Below, piece by piece: positions 50,470-60,719 of a stretch of DNA of 64,000 nt (the stretch's first letter is position 1; each line of letters starts with the position of its first letter). Location of the stretch: the NCBI GenBank assembly GCA_038314665.1, contig GCA_038314665.1_3677.1. One strand, written 5' to 3'. A program made the translations under genes and the position numbers. Origin of the DNA: a phage. Under the pieces are notes generated by a model that ran no database searches, was not told where the DNA came from, and worked only from the letters and a program-made list of their open reading frames with translations.

Positions 50470-52893
50470 ATGAGTATGTGGTCTTTCGACCTGGAGGCCT
50501 CTGGTTTACTAGAAGACCTAGATCTTTATTATCACTGCGGCTTGTTTAAAGAGCTGAATAAGAACCGTTTTATGCTGTTCCTTCCTCTAAATGACCGCAC
50601 ACACTACTCTGAAGAGGATATAGAGAAGGCTAAGAACTTTATTCTGGCAAAGAAAACTCTTTATAAAGATTTTGAAGTTCGCATAGCAGATTTTTCAGAG
50701 TTGGAAGGTTGGCTTACAGGCAATTCTGACTGGTCACCCACAGCTTTGAACTGCCACAACTGCTACAGCTACGACTTTATGCTGATGGAGAGATTGTCCG
50801 GTATTCATTTTGATATGTTCCGTGATCCTAAGTGTATGGGGACTATCAACGACCACCAGGTTAATCTGTTTGATACATTGGCTATGAGCCGAATTTTGTG
50901 GCCTGACCGACCTTTGCCAAAAGGTTGTCCAGACTCAGTATTTAACCCGGTTACTAAGAAAATGCAGCCTGTTGGACCTCACGGTCTTATGGCATGGGGC
51001 TACGCCCTTGGTAACCAGAAAGTTCAAATTGATGACTGGCGCGATCTCCCGTTGTGGAAGTATGTGGATCGTGTATTCGAGGACGTTATCATCCAGGAGC
51101 TACTCTGGAAAGAGCTGGTAGCGGAATCAAAAGGTGTATTCTACGGCAAATCTGACATGCAGAACTTTATGTACGATCCAGCCAAAGAGAAGCCGAAAGG
51201 GTTCAAGAAGATCACCTGGAAGAACGCATTACGTCGAGGCATGCTGCAGCACTTCCTGATGGAGCTGCAGGCCCGTCAGGGTGTATACTTCGACATAGAT
51301 GGAGCTATTGCTTTACGTGACCGTTGCGATGCGTGGATGAAAGAAATAGCTGATCGTGTTGAACCACAACTGCCTTTAAAAGAGCTGTCAATGTCTCAGC
51401 GGCCCAAATTCCCTGAAAAGCCGTTTAACCAAGACGGGACAATCTCTAATAATGGTTGGAAATGGTTAAAAGATAAGCTTGGCTATCCTGTAGACATGAG
51501 CGCTTTAGAGTTCAAAGCCCCGCCTAAGAGAGCATTTACCTCTACAGGGGATGTCAGCAAGATGGGGATAAAATGGTGTGAAGAGATGGGCTGCAAAGAC
51601 CCCGATAAGATGGCTGATTTCTTGAGAGGCTATATTAAGGGCACTTCCACACCACACCCTTTGCCTAAAGAGCTGATGGATCAGGCAATAAGTGATCTAC
51701 AGCAGAAGCGAATGCCGGACTGCAAGATACCTATGAAAATCAGCAATCAGGACGACATTAAGCGGTATCTGATCAGCGCTGGCTGGCTCCCGACAATGTG
51801 GAGAACTAAGGATGTAACTAAAGACAGCAAGAAGAAAGCTCTACCTGATGCAGATGTTGATGCACGAGTATATGCTTATATGGACGAGCTTTTAGAGTCA
51901 GAGTATTGTGACCTAATTATCAACTTCTGGAACAAAACTGATGCTAAGTTCCAGACAACCGTGCACAAGTTCCGAAGCTTTCCTAACTCCGAAAGGATTA
52001 AAAAGGAAGTGTTCGGGAAAATACGTAGAAAAGCCAGGGCACTTATTACTTCTCCGCAACTGAAAGATACGTTTGGACACCTGTGCCCGAATCTTGAAAA
52101 ATTGAACGGAGAGATGGCTAAAGATATCGTCTTGTGGTTATCATTGCGAAACCGCAGATCGGTCCTTGACCCAATCAAGGAGGATAAGGTTGATACTGGT
52201 CTTCTTAATCACCCACGTTTGAAGATTGACCATAAGCTTCCTGCTAAAAGTTCTGGGCTAACAAACACTTCCAGACAGAAACACAGTATTTGTGCAAACA
52301 TGCCTAAACCATCTCCTAAAGTGGTTATGGGTAAAGAGATGCGTAGTCTATGGGGTGTTCCTCCTGGATACTTTCAGATCGGTATTGACGGGTCCAACTT
52401 AGAGCAGCTTATCGGGGCTTGGGGTGCCTTTGAGTTCGACAACGGCCTGTATTATGATGTTGTAAGTAACGGAGACGCACACCAAAACAATGCTGAGGCA
52501 TATACAAAAGTAGCAGGCAGAGAGGTGTCCCGTAACGACGGTAAACCTATCACGTATGGTGTTATGTACGGGGCACAAAAAGATAAAGTTGCAGATATGC
52601 TGGACATCTCTCCAGAGTTGGGGCAAAGGGTAATAGATGCACTTTGGGATGCCAACCCCGGTCTTAAGGGGCGCAAAGAGGATCTGGAGAAATTCTGGGA
52701 AGCAACAGGTAAGAAGTTTATCTACTCTTTTGATGGTCATGCTATCTGGACCCGATCTAAACACTCTTTACTTAATGCATACCAACAAAATGGTGGTGCA
52801 TCGCTGTGTGACTTAGTCGGGATACTCATGCACCACCAAATGGTGAAGCGTGGGTGGTACGATGAAGGTGTCCGTCGTATTATTTATTACCAT
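50470..52893 (+). CDS. family A (T7-type) DNA polymerase, exon 1
   Basis: Exo I FDLEASG; motif A IDGSNLEQL; motif B RNDGKPITYGVMYGAQ; ORF ends ..IIYYH then K-stop where motif C HDE is expected. Confidence 0.7.
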
Positions 52894-53169
52894 AAATAAC
52901 ATTGTGGCTTCATAGAGTAATCTATGTCGAATAACCTCTTTAACTGCGGGAAGCCTAAACCTTATGGCAAGGTAATCCGCAACGAAGCGCTCAAAAGAGC
53001 GAACGCTCAGAGGCCATTCCGAAAGGAAGTAGACCAGCAAGTGCGGTCGAAATGGGAGGATTCCTGTGGTTGCTTATCATAGGAATATGAGATGGTCCGA
53101 TCCTACGTGAAAACGTATGGCTATGCACGTAATGGTGCGGGGTAGCTTAACGACCTACCTGAACTATTG
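52894..53169 (+). ncRNA. putative self-splicing group I intron in DNA polymerase gene
   Basis: 276 nt separating YYH from DEY; preceded by U (52893), ends in G (53169); P-like TGCGGGAA (52944-52951), Q-like AATCCGCA (52974-52981), R-like CTCAGAGGCCA and S-like AAGTAGACC elements; GTGG at 52904 can pair with exon CCAT. Confidence 0.5.
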
Positions 53170-53523
53170 GATGAGTACCAACTTCAAGTGCCTGACACAC
53201 CGAAGTATAAGACTGTGTACACCTTCGACACAATTGAAGAACTGGAAGCATTTAAGGCAGAGCAGGAGGCCAAACTTCATGTGTTCGACGGTCATAAGTA
53301 CAAAAAGGCACGCAAGGATGAGGACGGAAACGAAGTGGTTGACAGAGACGGAAACACGGTGTACGATCCTATTCTGAACGATGACGGAAAGCTTGAACTT
53401 ATCTGGAGCCCTGTGGGTGAAATGGTGGTGCATTGCTTCTGGCAAGCTTCTAAAATGATGGGAGTCCCGTTCCAGATCACAGGTGAATACTTGTGTGGTC
53501 GTAACTGGGGTGATTGTCACTAA
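53170..53523 (+). CDS. family A DNA polymerase, exon 2 (motif C to C-terminus)
   Basis: Begins DEYQLQV, completing H-D-E motif C when joined to exon 1; C-terminus ..GRNWGDCH resembles the T7 polymerase end as recalled from memory. Confidence 0.6.
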   Translation, partial: DEYQLQVPDTPKYKTVYTFDTIEELEAFKAEQEAKLHVFDGHKYKKARKDEDGNEVVDRDGNTVYDPILNDDGKLELIWSPVGEMVVHCFWQASKMMGVPFQITGEYLCGRNWGDCH

Positions 53524-56348: not shown

Positions 56349-56714
56349 ATGGAACAAATGAACGATCAAGAGTCGGTTGCGATGAACGAGCAAGAACAAC
56401 CTCAAGAATTTTTCTTAGGGTTAAGTAAAGATCAAGTGTCTCTTTTGCTAGTGCTTTCTTCTTTCATGGGAAGACTTCAGGAGCTCACACAACAACCGGA
56501 GGCTGAACAATTATTTCAGGCTCTGCGTGAAGAAGAAAAATATCGTCGTTTGGACTATGCCTTAGGTTGGGTAGCTCAACAACGAGATATGTTGATGGCC
56601 CTCTCTGGGACCACAAGTTTTGCAATGGGCCTGTTGGCTCAAGTTCAGGACAAATTAATTCAAGCAGGGTTTGCACACACGGCAAACACTAACGAAGAAC
56701 AAGGAGACAAATAA
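56349..56714 (+). CDS. hypothetical early protein
   Basis: 121-aa acidic ORF. Confidence 0.4.
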   Translation: MEQMNDQESVAMNEQEQPQEFFLGLSKDQVSLLLVLSSFMGRLQELTQQPEAEQLFQALREEEKYRRLDYALGWVAQQRDMLMALSGTTSFAMGLLAQVQDKLIQAGFAHTANTNEEQGDK

Positions 56715-57940
56715 TGAGCGTTATTCAACAATTCGCTAACCCGATGAATCCGCGTGAAACTGTTTTACTGGCTCACGGTATGATCAAGCGTGTCAGCATC
56801 AAGCCTATCAAAGGTGCTGATCCTACAACAGGTATTAAAACCACCGTGTGGCAAGGTAAGAAAATTGAATCCAGCCACACCATCTCTTTACTGATTTCTG
56901 AACTGGATTCCTCTGATAACCTGCTTCAAGGCGGTGAAGAAGTCTGGATCAGCATGGGTGATAAGCTACTTAAACCCGGTCATCAAGACTCTGTCTCTGT
57001 TAAGATTGATGACAAGTGGGAAACCGTAACGCCAGGATGGATCGTAAATATTCCTTTGAAGGCAAACGAGCATAACGGTAAGACCTATTACAAAGGCTCA
57101 CTGGCTAAGATGGTCAAGCTGGGTGCAGGAGAGGCTCCAGCAGCGACTCAGCAGCAAAAACAGCAACAAGGTGCACAATCACAAGGTCAGAAGCAGAAAC
57201 CTCAGCAGAATGCCAATCAGGACGTTTTACGCATCTATGGCGATGTGACTCAGATTGTTGGCAACGTGGTTACTGTTAATGACCACAAGATCGGCGAAGG
57301 TGCTATGGTTGTCACGGATGAGCAGCTTAAAGACCTGGTGGTAGGTGGTCGTGTTGCAGCCATTGTTGACAAAGACACCGGAAACATTATCAGTGGTTTC
57401 AAGGCCTATCCCCCTAAGGCAGAGAACGGCACTCAAGGCTCTGGTGGCAAGCGTAAATCCTCTTACGACCCTATCGGTGTGGAAACGGGGCATAGCATCA
57501 ATGCGTTGCAGATCATCCTGGATCGCGGGTTTAAGGTAGACGACCCACTAGGTGTGGCTAAAGCACTGCACGTAGTCACCATTGAGCTTAAGAAAGAGTA
57601 TGCTCAAGCCACCAACCGAACTGAAGATGAAGTAGGTGCCAGTGTCGGTAATGCGGTGTTGAACGCTTGTCGCCGTATTGACAAGAAAACGAAAGTTGAT
57701 GATTTTGCAGCGGCAATTACTGCAGAAGCAAAAGATGTGTTGACTAATCTGGCTGAGCCGTTGTACGATTGGATCAAGAACGGTGCTGGGTCAACTGACC
57801 ATCAAGAACCTCAGGCTGCCAAACAGGAAGCAGCTCCACAGCAAAACACTGTAGACGCTCCTCCTGTAAATGATGGGGAAGATGACCCGATGGATCAGAA
57901 TCCAGCACAGTACGCCTTTGATGACTCGATCCCTTTCTGA
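56714..57940 (+). CDS. single-stranded DNA-binding protein-like
   Basis: 408 aa; Gln/Gly-rich linker; acidic C-terminal tail ending ..AQYAFDDSIPF, matching the DDDIPF-type tip of bacterial SSB. Confidence 0.5.
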   Translation: MSVIQQFANPMNPRETVLLAHGMIKRVSIKPIKGADPTTGIKTTVWQGKKIESSHTISLLISELDSSDNLLQGGEEVWISMGDKLLKPGHQDSVSVKIDDKWETVTPGWIVNIPLKANEHNGKTYYKGSLAKMVKLGAGEAPAATQQQKQQQGAQSQGQKQKPQQNANQDVLRIYGDVTQIVGNVVTVNDHKIGEGAMVVTDEQLKDLVVGGRVAAIVDKDTGNIISGFKAYPPKAENGTQGSGGKRKSSYDPIGVETGHSINALQIILDRGFKVDDPLGVAKALHVVTIELKKEYAQATNRTEDEVGASVGNAVLNACRRIDKKTKVDDFAAAITAEAKDVLTNLAEPLYDWIKNGAGSTDHQEPQAAKQEAAPQQNTVDAPPVNDGEDDPMDQNPAQYAFDDSIPF

Positions 57941-57948
57941 GGTCAGTT

Positions 57949-58527
57949 ATGAAATGCAAACGTTGTGGGGAGGACAAGGAGGCCTCCGACTTCTACACCA
58001 GCAACAAATCAACGTGCAAAGAGTGCTGTAAGAAGGCCAGCAGGGAGGCTGACCAATTTGCTAAAGACTCTTCAGAAAAAGGTGTAATACGTGTGTTGTA
58101 CAAAACTCAAAAGTGCAACAGCAAGCAAAGAGGTCACCCTCCTCCGACTTACACCAAAAAAGAGTTTAAAGAGTGGCTATACCTAAACGGTTACAAAGAG
58201 TTGTATGACCAATGGGTAGCCAGCGGATACGACAAAAGGAAAAAGCCTTCTTGTGACAGGATAGACGATTTCAAAGGATACTCTTTTGATAATATCCGTT
58301 TAACAACTTGGGGAGAAAATAAAGACAAGCAGACAGAGGATATTCTGTTACATAGAAGCACCAGCGGTAGACGGTGCAAAAATGTAAGGAGATTGGACAT
58401 GAATGGCAACGTTCTTAAAGAATGGGTATCCCACAACTCTTGCAGCAGAGAAACCGGAATATATGTTGGTTACTACATTCATGAAAAAATTCCAGCCCCC
58501 GATGGATACCTCTATGAATACTTTTAG
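57949..58527 (+). CDS. Cys-rich zinc-finger protein, possible nuclease
   Basis: 192 aa; N-terminal CKRC..CKECC zinc-finger-like cysteines; no definitive HNH or GIY-YIG motif seen. Confidence 0.3.
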   Translation: MKCKRCGEDKEASDFYTSNKSTCKECCKKASREADQFAKDSSEKGVIRVLYKTQKCNSKQRGHPPPTYTKKEFKEWLYLNGYKELYDQWVASGYDKRKKPSCDRIDDFKGYSFDNIRLTTWGENKDKQTEDILLHRSTSGRRCKNVRRLDMNGNVLKEWVSHNSCSRETGIYVGYYIHEKIPAPDGYLYEYF

Positions 58528-58542
58528 CACCTAACCAACATA

Positions 58543-58570
58543 GCCCTGCCCGAAAGGGTGGGGCATTTTT
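58543..58570 (+). terminator. rho-independent terminator (copy 2 of duplicated hairpin)
   Basis: gccctgccc-GAAA-gggtggggc followed by attttt; identical hairpin to 47534..47555. Confidence 0.55.
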
Positions 58571-58589: not shown

Positions 58590-59006
58590 ATGACATTAGA
58601 AGATATCATTGTTAAACCTGAGAACTATGACCAATACAACCTGTCAACTCAATCTGTAGACCTCGGATGCGCCACAGTCAGTGCATGGCTGGTTAACGGA
58701 AAAGAGCTTGACGAGTGCCTGGAAGCACACATGTCGGTGAATAAATTTCTTGATGAAAATACCCACTGGCTAGAGGGTGCAGGCGTATATGCTTCATGGT
58801 TGGAGAGTATGGGATTCGACTACCAATCTGAAGAAGGGTGGTGGAGCTATTTAGCTATCTGCCCAGAGACGCTGCAATGCTTCATGAAATATTCTGAAGA
58901 TTTGGAGTACCGGGCGGTGGTTGATAGTGCTATTGCCCGTTATAGCCGTAAACCTTTTTCCCACGACATTAAAACTGTGGAAGAATTTGTTGAAGTTTTC
59001 TGTTGA
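58590..59006 (+). CDS. hypothetical early protein
   Basis: 138-aa ORF, RBS AAGGAG. Confidence 0.45.
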   Translation: MTLEDIIVKPENYDQYNLSTQSVDLGCATVSAWLVNGKELDECLEAHMSVNKFLDENTHWLEGAGVYASWLESMGFDYQSEEGWWSYLAICPETLQCFMKYSEDLEYRAVVDSAIARYSRKPFSHDIKTVEEFVEVFC

Positions 59007-59102
59007 CACAGGTTGAAAGGTGTGCAATTATAACTTCATATAACGGGAGGACGCGATGAACGAAGAAAACTGGGATGTATAACTAACAGGAGGCCACTGC
59101 CC

Positions 59103-59300
59103 ATGATTTATCGAATCCGTGTAAGAGAAGATGCACCAGGTTGTTACTTTGACTGGCGTGGGTGGTGGTTTCTCCACCCAATGGATGGACTCACAGATAG
59201 AATGCTGGATGCTGCCCTTTATACAGATACCGATATAGAATATAATCTCTATCTGAAGGACGGTATAGATAACGGCCTGTTTGAAGCAATTCCTGTGTAA
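59103..59300 (+). CDS. hypothetical early protein
   Basis: 65-aa ORF, RBS AGGAGG. Confidence 0.35.
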   Translation: MIYRIRVREDAPGCYFDWRGWWFLHPMDGLTDRMLDAALYTDTDIEYNLYLKDGIDNGLFEAIPV

Positions 59301-59368
59301 GAGACTGTGATAGCTATGTTTTATGATCTTCCTGTAGCACCACCACCTGTTGAACCCGGAGAACTAAG

Positions 59369-59794
59369 ATGATCTATGAAATGCCAAAACTGATTCGCGA
59401 CGATGCCCAAAACGCTCACACCATTATTATGGGCAAACGCATGGATATTATTTGTCATAAAGATTTCTGGGAAGGAAGTTACTTCACAGAGTATTTTGGT
59501 AAACTGGACAATGGTCTGCTGATCCAGTTCTACACCGATGCGGAAAACAACATTCACTGGGAGTTCGAAACTGAAGATATTCATAAACTTTTCACCTTCC
59601 TAGGTATTAAGGTTGAGGCCAAGTTTGAAGAAGGTGAGTGCGACGATTGTGGATTCTACGAGGTAACAGATTTCTACCTCCCGAGTGGTGAGAACCTTTA
59701 CTATGAAAGCCACTTCGGCAACTCAAATATGCCACAAGGTTGGGATGAGTTTTTTGAAATTGCGGAAGAGGAGCTGGCATACCGTGATTATTGA
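59369..59794 (+). CDS. hypothetical early protein
   Basis: 141-aa ORF. Confidence 0.4.
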   Translation: MIYEMPKLIRDDAQNAHTIIMGKRMDIICHKDFWEGSYFTEYFGKLDNGLLIQFYTDAENNIHWEFETEDIHKLFTFLGIKVEAKFEEGECDDCGFYEVTDFYLPSGENLYYESHFGNSNMPQGWDEFFEIAEEELAYRDY

Positions 59795-60242
59795 TACTGT
59801 AGAGGGAGATTTAATCTCCCTTTTTAAGAGCGGTGCTGGTCACCTGATCCACGGTTGTAACTGCTTCCACACAATGGGCAAGGGGATAGCAAAACAGATT
59901 GCCCGTGAGTTCCCTCAAGCATTGGCAGCTGACAAAGAGACCAGACATGGTTGCCTAAGTAAACTGGGTGCGTTCTCCCGATGGGAGCACTTATCTCCGG
60001 TAGGTATTGTCTACGGAATCAATCTATATACTCAGTTCTACCCAGGACCTAATGCTGAGTATTTCTCAATCCTGAAAGGCTTTGAGCTAGTCAATGAAGT
60101 ATTCAGTGGATCTACTTTACCATTCTACATCCCTAAGATCGGGTGCGGCATAGGTGGTTTGAAGTGGGAGCACGTAGAGGACGTTATTAACCTTGCCACT
60201 TTTGATATGGATATTATCGTGGTGGAGTACAAAAAGTGTTGA
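59784..60242 (+). CDS. macro-domain protein (ADP-ribose binding/hydrolase-like)
   Basis: GTG 59784 after GAGGAG, overlapping upstream stop; HGCNCFHTMGKGIAKQIAREFP and IPKIGCGIGGL match macro-domain glycine-rich signatures; the longer track ORF from 59685 is probably not the real start. Confidence 0.55.
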   Translation: MIIDTVEGDLISLFKSGAGHLIHGCNCFHTMGKGIAKQIAREFPQALAADKETRHGCLSKLGAFSRWEHLSPVGIVYGINLYTQFYPGPNAEYFSILKGFELVNEVFSGSTLPFYIPKIGCGIGGLKWEHVEDVINLATFDMDIIVVEYKKC

Positions 60243-60267
60243 CAGCTGGTTTTTGAGATGGTATAGT
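60239..60267 (+). promoter_or_regulatory. sigma70-like promoter
   Basis: TTGACA - 17 nt - TATAGT. Confidence 0.5.
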
Positions 60268-60691: not shown

Positions 60692-60719
60692 TTGACATCT
60701 GAAAACTGTAGTGTATAAT
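60692..60719 (+). promoter_or_regulatory. sigma70-like promoter
   Basis: TTGACA - 16 nt - TATAAT with TG just upstream of the -10. Confidence 0.55.

Follow-up and report, generated by a model that had tools for sequence, protein, structure and literature searches.

The closest described counterpart of the gene analysed here is tk.4 of phage T4. According to a November 2025 preprint (bioRxiv 10.1101/2025.11.20.689424), tk.4 alone among the T4 genes was depleted when transposon mutants were screened on DarTG2, and its clean knockout makes T4 specifically sensitive to DarTG2; the preprint named the gene adfM, with AdfM standing for anti-DarT factor macrodomain. The macrodomain gp104 of PhiKZ was independently named AdfM in April 2026 (Cell Rep 2026, PMC13309987). 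According to that paper, PhiKZ AdfM clears DNA in vitro of the ADP-ribose that DarT2 has attached, AdfM deletion mutants show multi-log sensitisation, and a role in growth under DarTG2 is described for AdfM of PhiKZ and PhiPA3. Besides, the bacterial macrodomain SCO6735 removes ADP-ribose from DNA thymidine and rescues E. coli from DarT; its Q85A and N27S variants are inactive, a lysine-independent, water-mediated mechanism has been proposed for it, and it hydrolyses protein-linked ADP-ribose (ADPr) too (PMC9411070). In three other Vequintavirinae, Bas60-62, the NADAR eraser AdfN acts on DNA adducts against the guanine-modifying DarTG1; this phage subfamily is thus already known to carry anti-DarT erasers.

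The window, which is the whole stretch of 64,000 nucleotides of phage DNA that was analysed, contains a stand-alone gene homologous to T4 tk.4 (Table 1). The 3 kb around this gene share 98.3% identity with Escherichia phage JES2013 and match 120 phage records, mostly at 90-99% identity, of which the typed ones are Vequintavirus/Vequintavirinae (rV5-like); judged by this similarity, the window phage is a Vequintavirus, that is, an rV5-like E. coli phage. Among the relatives the gene is labelled variously as "macro domain protein", "phosphatase", "O-acetyl-ADP-ribose deacetylase" and "hypothetical protein". In translation, the ORF at 59784-60242 runs for 152 codons with no internal stop, while the opposite strand of the same segment has stops throughout. 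It holds both motifs that a preliminary description, made from the letters of the window, had quoted from a protein of about 150 aa: residues 23-44 read HGCNCFHTMGKGIAKQIAREFP, and residues 116-126 read IPKIGCGIGGL.

The frame is open further 5', to position 59685 (185 aa) in the program-made ORF list, and the ATG at 59745 is the start annotated for the gene in one relative. These longer starts (GTG at 59685 and ATG at 59745) were ruled out and the GTG at 59784 was preferred, because residue 1 encoded there aligns with the MII/MIV start of all family members, including T4 Tk.4. The annotation of JES2013 gives the same 459-nt CDS, and in the start region JES2013 and VB-EcoM-WM are identical to the window, bar one upstream base. 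The stop of the upstream ORF (59369-59794) lies inside the gene, giving an overlap of 11 nt.

Table 1. Coordinates of the macrodomain gene, its main sequence elements and nearby candidate expression signals in the window
Feature	Position	Strand	Description and basis
Stand-alone macrodomain gene, T4 tk.4/adfM homologue	59784-60242	+	152 aa, GTG/TGA
Shine-Dalgarno-like element GAGGAG	59768-59773	+	10 nt 5' of the GTG, within the end of the upstream ORF; from sequence; kept in JES2013 and VB-EcoM-WM
Asn26 codon (AAC), conserved active-site Asn	59859-59861	+	Invariant in 88/88; alignment; mutational importance of equivalents in PMC9411070 and PMC13309987
MGKGIA, residues 31-36, first ADP-ribose/phosphate-binding loop	59874-59891	+	Alignment to Mtb DarG and TARG1
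Gln84 codon (CAG) in NLYTQ, at the catalytic-Lys position	60033-60035	+	Invariant in 88/88; alignments
IGCGIGG, residues 119-125, second glycine-rich, diphosphate-binding loop	60138-60158	+	Alignment to TARG1 and SCO6735
Candidate sigma-70-like promoter, TTGACA-17-AATTAT with extended TG	59003-59031	+	5' of the three-gene run 59103-60242; consensus scan
Candidate sigma-70-type promoter, TTGACA-17-TATAGT	60239-60267	+	Overlaps the macro stop codon; consensus scan
Candidate sigma-70-type promoter	60692-60719	+	12/12 consensus; consensus scan
GC-rich terminator-like hairpin	58543-58564	+	5' of the candidate promoter at 59003; from sequence

To place the protein in a family, it was compared with profile collections and solved structures. 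It matched the Pfam Macro family (PF01661) with 28.3 bits against a gathering score of 22 (E 1.9e-6). The best stretch of this match covers just 32 profile positions at the N-terminal end; independent confirmation of the fold therefore came from an AF2 model, Foldseek and structural ranking. Over its full length, the protein matches PHROG 335, which is labelled "phosphatase" (E 2.2e-59), and the AF2 model, computed with 88 homologues as input, reached a mean pLDDT of 96.4 and a pTM of 0.91. When the family profile was compared with solved structures, the best match was M. tuberculosis DarG (1.1e-16), followed by BT1257 and SCO6735 (about 7e-16), TARG1 (about 4e-15), T. aquaticus DarG (6e-15) and Poa1p (1.7e-13), and the coronavirus, PARP and Af1521 macro domains came at E 0.01 or worse. 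Foldseek gave TARG1, Poa1p and DarG as the top ranks for the AF2 model, with TARG1 the best (TM 0.78-0.85), and the structural similarity of Poa1p to the window macrodomain equals that of DarG.

In both structure and profile, the protein is thus nearer to TARG1, DarG, Poa1p and SCO6735 than to MacroD, viral, PARG or macroH2A domains, and by the profile ranking, the AF2 model and Foldseek it is an ALC1-like (TARG1/DarG/Poa1p/SCO6735) macrodomain and not one of MacroD type. Neither its structure nor its sequence is closest to MacroD1/2, YmdB or Af1521, and the structural ranking led us to reject the MacroD/YmdB-type deacetylase reading found in the annotation of some relatives. The macro-domain call of the preliminary description proved correct, resting now on the Pfam match above the gathering score, PHROG 335 and the confident model; the ADP-ribose-binding loops and the conserved Asn are present, and the comparison with DarG and MacroD places the fold in the class of DarG. 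The identity of a DarG antitoxin was rejected as well. NCBIfam DarG (NF048014, E 1.1e-12) and PADLOC DarG (1.7e-13) match the macro part only; for NF048014 the match spans profile positions 3-141 of 338 and scores 47.9 bits, far below the equivalog cutoff of 250, and there is neither a C-terminal domain nor a darT neighbour among the ten flanking ORFs scanned.

Residue conservation was then read from a family alignment of 88 sequences, and the active-site assignment was made from sequence and profile alignments to solved structures rather than from model coordinates. It turned out that G24, N26, G34, A36, N80, Q84, P117 and G120 are invariant (88/88), and H23, M31, Y82, T83, G88, I119, G122 and G125 nearly so. 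For the glycines of the two loops, G32 is kept in 80 of the 88 members, G122 in 87 and G125 in 86. Asn26 aligns with N22 of TaqDarG, N23 of PhiKZ AdfM and N27 of SCO6735. The MGKGIA loop aligns with MGKGIA of Mtb DarG and MGAGIA of TARG1, and IGCGIGG with IGCGLDR of TARG1 and IGCGLAG of SCO6735. H23 and T30 are the counterparts of H23 and S30 in Poa1p.

The position of the catalytic Lys (K80 in TaqDarG, K84 in TARG1, K78 in PhiKZ AdfM) is taken by Gln84 of the NLYTQ motif in the window protein, and all 88 members have Gln there. Besides, the catalytic Asp125 of TARG1 corresponds to Gly124. A Gln in place of the Lys is common to the window protein, T4 Tk.4, SCO6735 and BT1257. In particular, SCO6735 has H24-V25-C26-N27 and Q85 at the positions of H23-G24-C25-N26 and Q84, while the extended Lys-rich loop (K89, K94) and Val25 of SCO6735 are absent, there being a gap of 5-6 residues after QFYPG and the invariant Gly24 instead. 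Since Gln is a functional alternative in SCO6735, the missing Lys is not evidence of inactivity, and by these alignments the protein is a predicted Gln-type catalytic variant of the macrodomain.

The relationship to T4 is the closest of those with an assigned function. T4 Tk.4, which was the T4 match of the phage tblastn search, aligns with the window protein over its full length (39% identity, 150 of 152 residues, E 1e-40), so the latter is a stand-alone phage macrodomain homologous end to end with Tk.4. The two share the motifs HGCNCFHTMG, NLYTQFxPGPN and IGxGIG, and N26, Q84, G34 and G120 are found in the window protein, in T4 Tk.4 and in 88 of 88 members. To PhiKZ gp104 the identity is 21% by BLASTP, and this relationship was made via profile comparison (hhalign probability 97.5%). 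Judged from these residues, the name AdfM appears to cover two chemically different macrodomain types, of which the window protein is of the T4 type. No discussion of the Gln/Lys difference between T4-type and PhiKZ AdfM was found in the accessible text of the two reports (10.1101/2025.11.20.689424 and PMC13309987).

From the fold, the family, the residue pattern and the Tk.4 homology observed above, we infer which substrate the window protein acts on, that DarT2 is its target and how catalysis proceeds. At a probability of roughly 0.7, the gene product is a catalytically competent macrodomain that serves as an orphan antitoxin-like DNA ADP-ribosylglycohydrolase and would counter DarT2. In this course of events, infection would activate the DarTG2 toxin-antitoxin system of the host, and the freed DarT2 would add ADP-ribose to thymidines of single-stranded phage DNA and thereby block replication. 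The phage macrodomain, supplied from the replication-gene arm, would bind the ADP-ribose by its two glycine-rich loops and hydrolyse the thymidine-ribose bond, restoring a replicable template and acting as an "orphan antitoxin". The chemistry would be independent of lysine, as proposed for SCO6735: Asn26 would hold Gln84 and Gln84 would position the distal ribose, a predicted route unlike the Lys-dependent one of DarG and PhiKZ AdfM.

This reading is bounded by an identity of only 39% to the genetically tested homologue, T4 Tk.4. Biochemistry for the removal of DarT2-type ADPr comes from PhiKZ AdfM (Lys type) and SCO6735 (Gln type), and the evidence for T4 Tk.4 is genetic and from a preprint. 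The preliminary suggestion that the protein could reverse host immunity based on ADP-ribosylation agrees with the Tk.4 genetics and the PhiKZ AdfM biochemistry and is supported in this main line.

The surroundings of the gene were searched for a possible partner. No Pfam match was obtained for the 10 ORFs flanking the gene (6 upstream and 4 downstream), for which relatives annotate only hypothetical proteins, and so no darT was found beside it. The lack of a DarT-binding C-terminal domain, together with the lack of Pfam matches in the flanking ORFs, fits an orphan eraser. Among 20 window ORFs scanned against Pfam, there is no ADP-ribosyltransferase and no NADAR (AdfN-like) gene, the single match being an unrelated cell-wall hydrolase, and the annotation of relatives contains no ADP-ribosyltransferase either. 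Scans for tRNAs and tandem repeats near the gene gave nothing relevant.

The gene lies within a long co-directional block, in which helicase, primase and DNA polymerase are followed by many small unannotated genes. A consensus scan found 17 promoter-like sites against 10.8 +/- 3.4 expected; the near-consensus sites and the terminator-like hairpin of Table 1 suggest that host RNA polymerase may transcribe the small-gene block as several short units. Gene position and promoter-like sites are consistent with early or middle expression, and the label "early" given to the protein in the preliminary description is plausible.

Several other features were observed in this block. The DNA polymerase gene is interrupted by a group I intron at 52894-53169 (+), with exons at 50470-52893 and 53170-53523. 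Rfam RF00028 matches at 52884-53119 (E 4e-14), its 64.7 bits lying above the gathering score of 50, and relative to the intron-less polymerase gene of JES2013 there is an insertion of 276 nt between the His and Asp codons of YYH/DEY, a site which we take to resemble polymerase motif C. Joined in frame, the two exons encode 925 aa, just as many as the polymerase of JES2013 has. No homing-endonuclease ORF lies within the intron, and in one relative an HNH endonuclease is annotated directly after the polymerase. Further downstream, a 408-aa ORF at 56714-57940 (+) with no Pfam match has a long Gln/Ala/Pro-rich linker and the C-terminus AQYAFDDSIPF, presumably closely like the C-terminal tip of E. 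coli SSB (DDDIPF) that recruits host replication and repair proteins; its product could be a phage SSB-like or SSB-tail-mimicking protein. It is followed by a Cys-rich ORF of 192 aa at 57949-58527 (+; CKRCGEDKE...CKECCKK), which has no Pfam match at E <= 0.01 and is annotated in relatives as endonuclease VII or putative homing endonuclease, the CDS there starting earlier and overlapping the end of the 408-aa gene.

Other activities of the macrodomain were also weighed. The protein could be a de-ADP-ribosylase of proteins, or of proteins and DNA, which reverses mono-ADP-ribosylation of phage or host proteins by ADP-ribosyltransferases of host defence or of the phage, in the manner of TARG1 or SCO6735. 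TARG1 is its best Foldseek match, SCO6735 with its Gln-type site hydrolyses protein-linked ADPr (PMC9411070), and macro domains are very common among large lytic phages. However, the TARG1 dyad is wholly missing (Lys84 to Gln84, Asp125 to Gly124), the scanned window ORFs and the annotation of relatives hold no ADP-ribosyltransferase, and no family member has a known protein target, which makes a protein substrate unlikely. The database labels "phosphatase" and "O-acetyl-ADP-ribose deacetylase" imply instead a hydrolase of small ADP-ribose metabolites, i.e. a Poa1p-like ADP-ribose-1''-phosphate phosphatase or an O-acetyl-ADP-ribose deacetylase, that clears NAD-derived by-products, for example of RNA repair, in place of repairing DNA. 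The Lys is lost, the similarity to Poa1p is as high as that to DarG and the H23/T30 counterparts are kept, and therefore sequence alone cannot fix the substrate; still, we regard such a metabolite hydrolase as improbable. As Iyer et al. 2022 predicted for phage macro domains in general, the protein might hydrolyse immune signals derived from ADP-ribose, for example Thoeris gcADPR or His-ADPR, or soak them up as a sponge. This is very doubtful, because the protein has no specific similarity to signal-binding macro domains and its nearest relatives are all hydrolases of macromolecules or Appr1p. Moreover, NADAR, the other half of the prediction, later proved to work on DNA adducts, and T4 Tk.4 has been mapped to DarTG2 (bioRxiv 10.1101/2025.11.20.689424). 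All three alternatives lack specific support, among them the degradation of ADP-ribose-derived signals that had been offered in the preliminary description.

The eraser of DarT2-made adducts remains the preferred reading for the window gene, and the distribution of its family bears on how wide the role of such proteins may be. By tblastn, the family was found in 2,780 of 50,697 phage records, the majority of them from large lytic phages, including Tevenvirinae, Felixounavirus, Kuttervirus-like phages, and Pseudomonas and Vibrio myoviruses. In a scan of bacterial genomes, 359 homologue loci were confirmed. The best 80 of them (L006-L085) are stand-alone, carry the N[A/G/L]YTQ motif and share about 40% identity with the phage protein, and their macro motif mostly starts near residue 21, as in the protein of about 150 aa. 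They come from Desulfobacter, the Roseobacter group (Ruegeria), Shewanella, Bacteroidota, Verrucomicrobiota and others. Stand-alone Gln-type macrodomains are common in marine and sediment bacteria.

The neighbours of these 80 best loci were compared by clustering after spurious antisense ORFs had been removed. At these loci we found no neighbour conserved across lineages, only lineage-local synteny in the Roseobacter group, and no recurring DarT-like neighbour family, which resembles the orphan status of SCO6735. Since these bacterial homologues, which are as similar to the window protein as T4 Tk.4 is, are stand-alone and show neither a nearby DarT nor a conserved neighbour, the role of the family need not be restricted to DarTG2, and its ancestral role may have been broader than anti-DarT; this lowers the confidence in the anti-DarT2 reading. 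A wider proposal can be put forward tentatively: Tk.4-type macrodomains, present in about 5% of sequenced phage genomes and as orphan genes in hundreds of bacteria, would be mechanistically distinct, lysine-independent (Gln/Asn, SCO6735-like) erasers whose substrates may extend to protein-linked or other nucleic-acid ADP-ribosylation, so that they would be a broad-spectrum counter to ADP-ribosylating defences and not specific for DarTG2. We hold this possible, though at well below even odds.

Several near relatives, whose contigs are either of phage size (about 135 kb) or shorter, carry disrupted alleles of the macrodomain gene. In P0017, the upstream ORF is fused to the macro gene and the N-terminal macro half is missing; the N-terminal part of the upstream 141-aa protein is joined to the macro C-terminal half at a common QFY, which suggests that the fusion may have arisen by microhomology-mediated deletion. 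P0020 has an internal in-frame deletion, and P0038 and P0053 have a frameshifted gene. These alleles could be real loss-of-function variants or assembly artefacts; if not artefacts, they would fit a dispensable, conditionally useful counter-defence gene.

The macro-domain annotation in GenBank relatives is already known, as is a T4 homologue with an assigned function. The one modestly new point is the Gln-type site, which sets the T4/Vequintavirus type of AdfM apart from the PhiKZ/DarG type and suggests two chemically different macrodomain answers to the same defence, both circulating in phages. Our literature searches found no study that tested a Vequintavirus macrodomain directly or challenged Vequintavirinae with DarTG2. 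If confirmed, the AdfM counter-defence would be extended from T-even phages and chimalliviruses to rV5-like Vequintaviruses. Vequintaviruses are often obtained as phages of pathogenic E. coli, O157:H7 among them, and their use in biocontrol and therapy is under consideration. A DarTG2 antidote here, along with the NADAR antidote to DarTG1 in some relatives, would, if confirmed, help to predict host range on strains bearing DarTG.

In comparison with known systems, the window protein differs from DarG2 of DarTG2 (T. aquaticus and M. tuberculosis; PDB 5M31, 5M3E and 5M3I) in having no C-terminal DarT-binding domain, no adjacent darT, and Gln in place of Lys80. SCO6735 of S. coelicolor (PDB 5E3B) and BT1257 of Bacteroides (PDB 2FG1/2AFC) share about 25-27% identity with it. 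Unlike these two, it has no longer, Lys-rich mobile loop after the Gln, and unlike SCO6735 it has Gly24 where that protein has Val25 and a DarG/TARG1-like first loop, MGKGIA, in place of WGKGF. With human TARG1/OARD1 and yeast Poa1p it shares the fold subclass and the conserved His23, and Thr30 corresponds to Ser30 of Poa1p, whereas the Lys84/Asp125 dyad of TARG1 is absent; TARG1 and Poa1p are eukaryotic cellular enzymes with protein-Glu-ADPr or Appr1p as substrates. PhiKZ AdfM is likewise a stand-alone, DarG-like phage macrodomain of the broad PHROG 335 with the active-site Asn and both Gly-rich loops. It keeps the DarG-type Lys (K78), unlike Gln84 here, and is imported into the phage nucleus, a structure that Vequintaviruses are not known to build. 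T4 Tk.4 belongs to Tevenvirinae instead of Vequintavirinae, differs in 61% of the residues, has Ser where the window protein has Lys33, and is encoded beside vs and tk, whereas the window gene lies downstream of DNA polymerase; within the Tk.4 type, the genetic evidence for an anti-DarTG2 function is for T4 tk.4 only. Both are stand-alone proteins of about 150 aa in PHROG 335 with identical signature motifs, among them NLYTQ with its Gln and HGCNC with its Asn, and in both cases the gene sits between small non-structural genes in the genome of a large lytic myovirus of E. coli.
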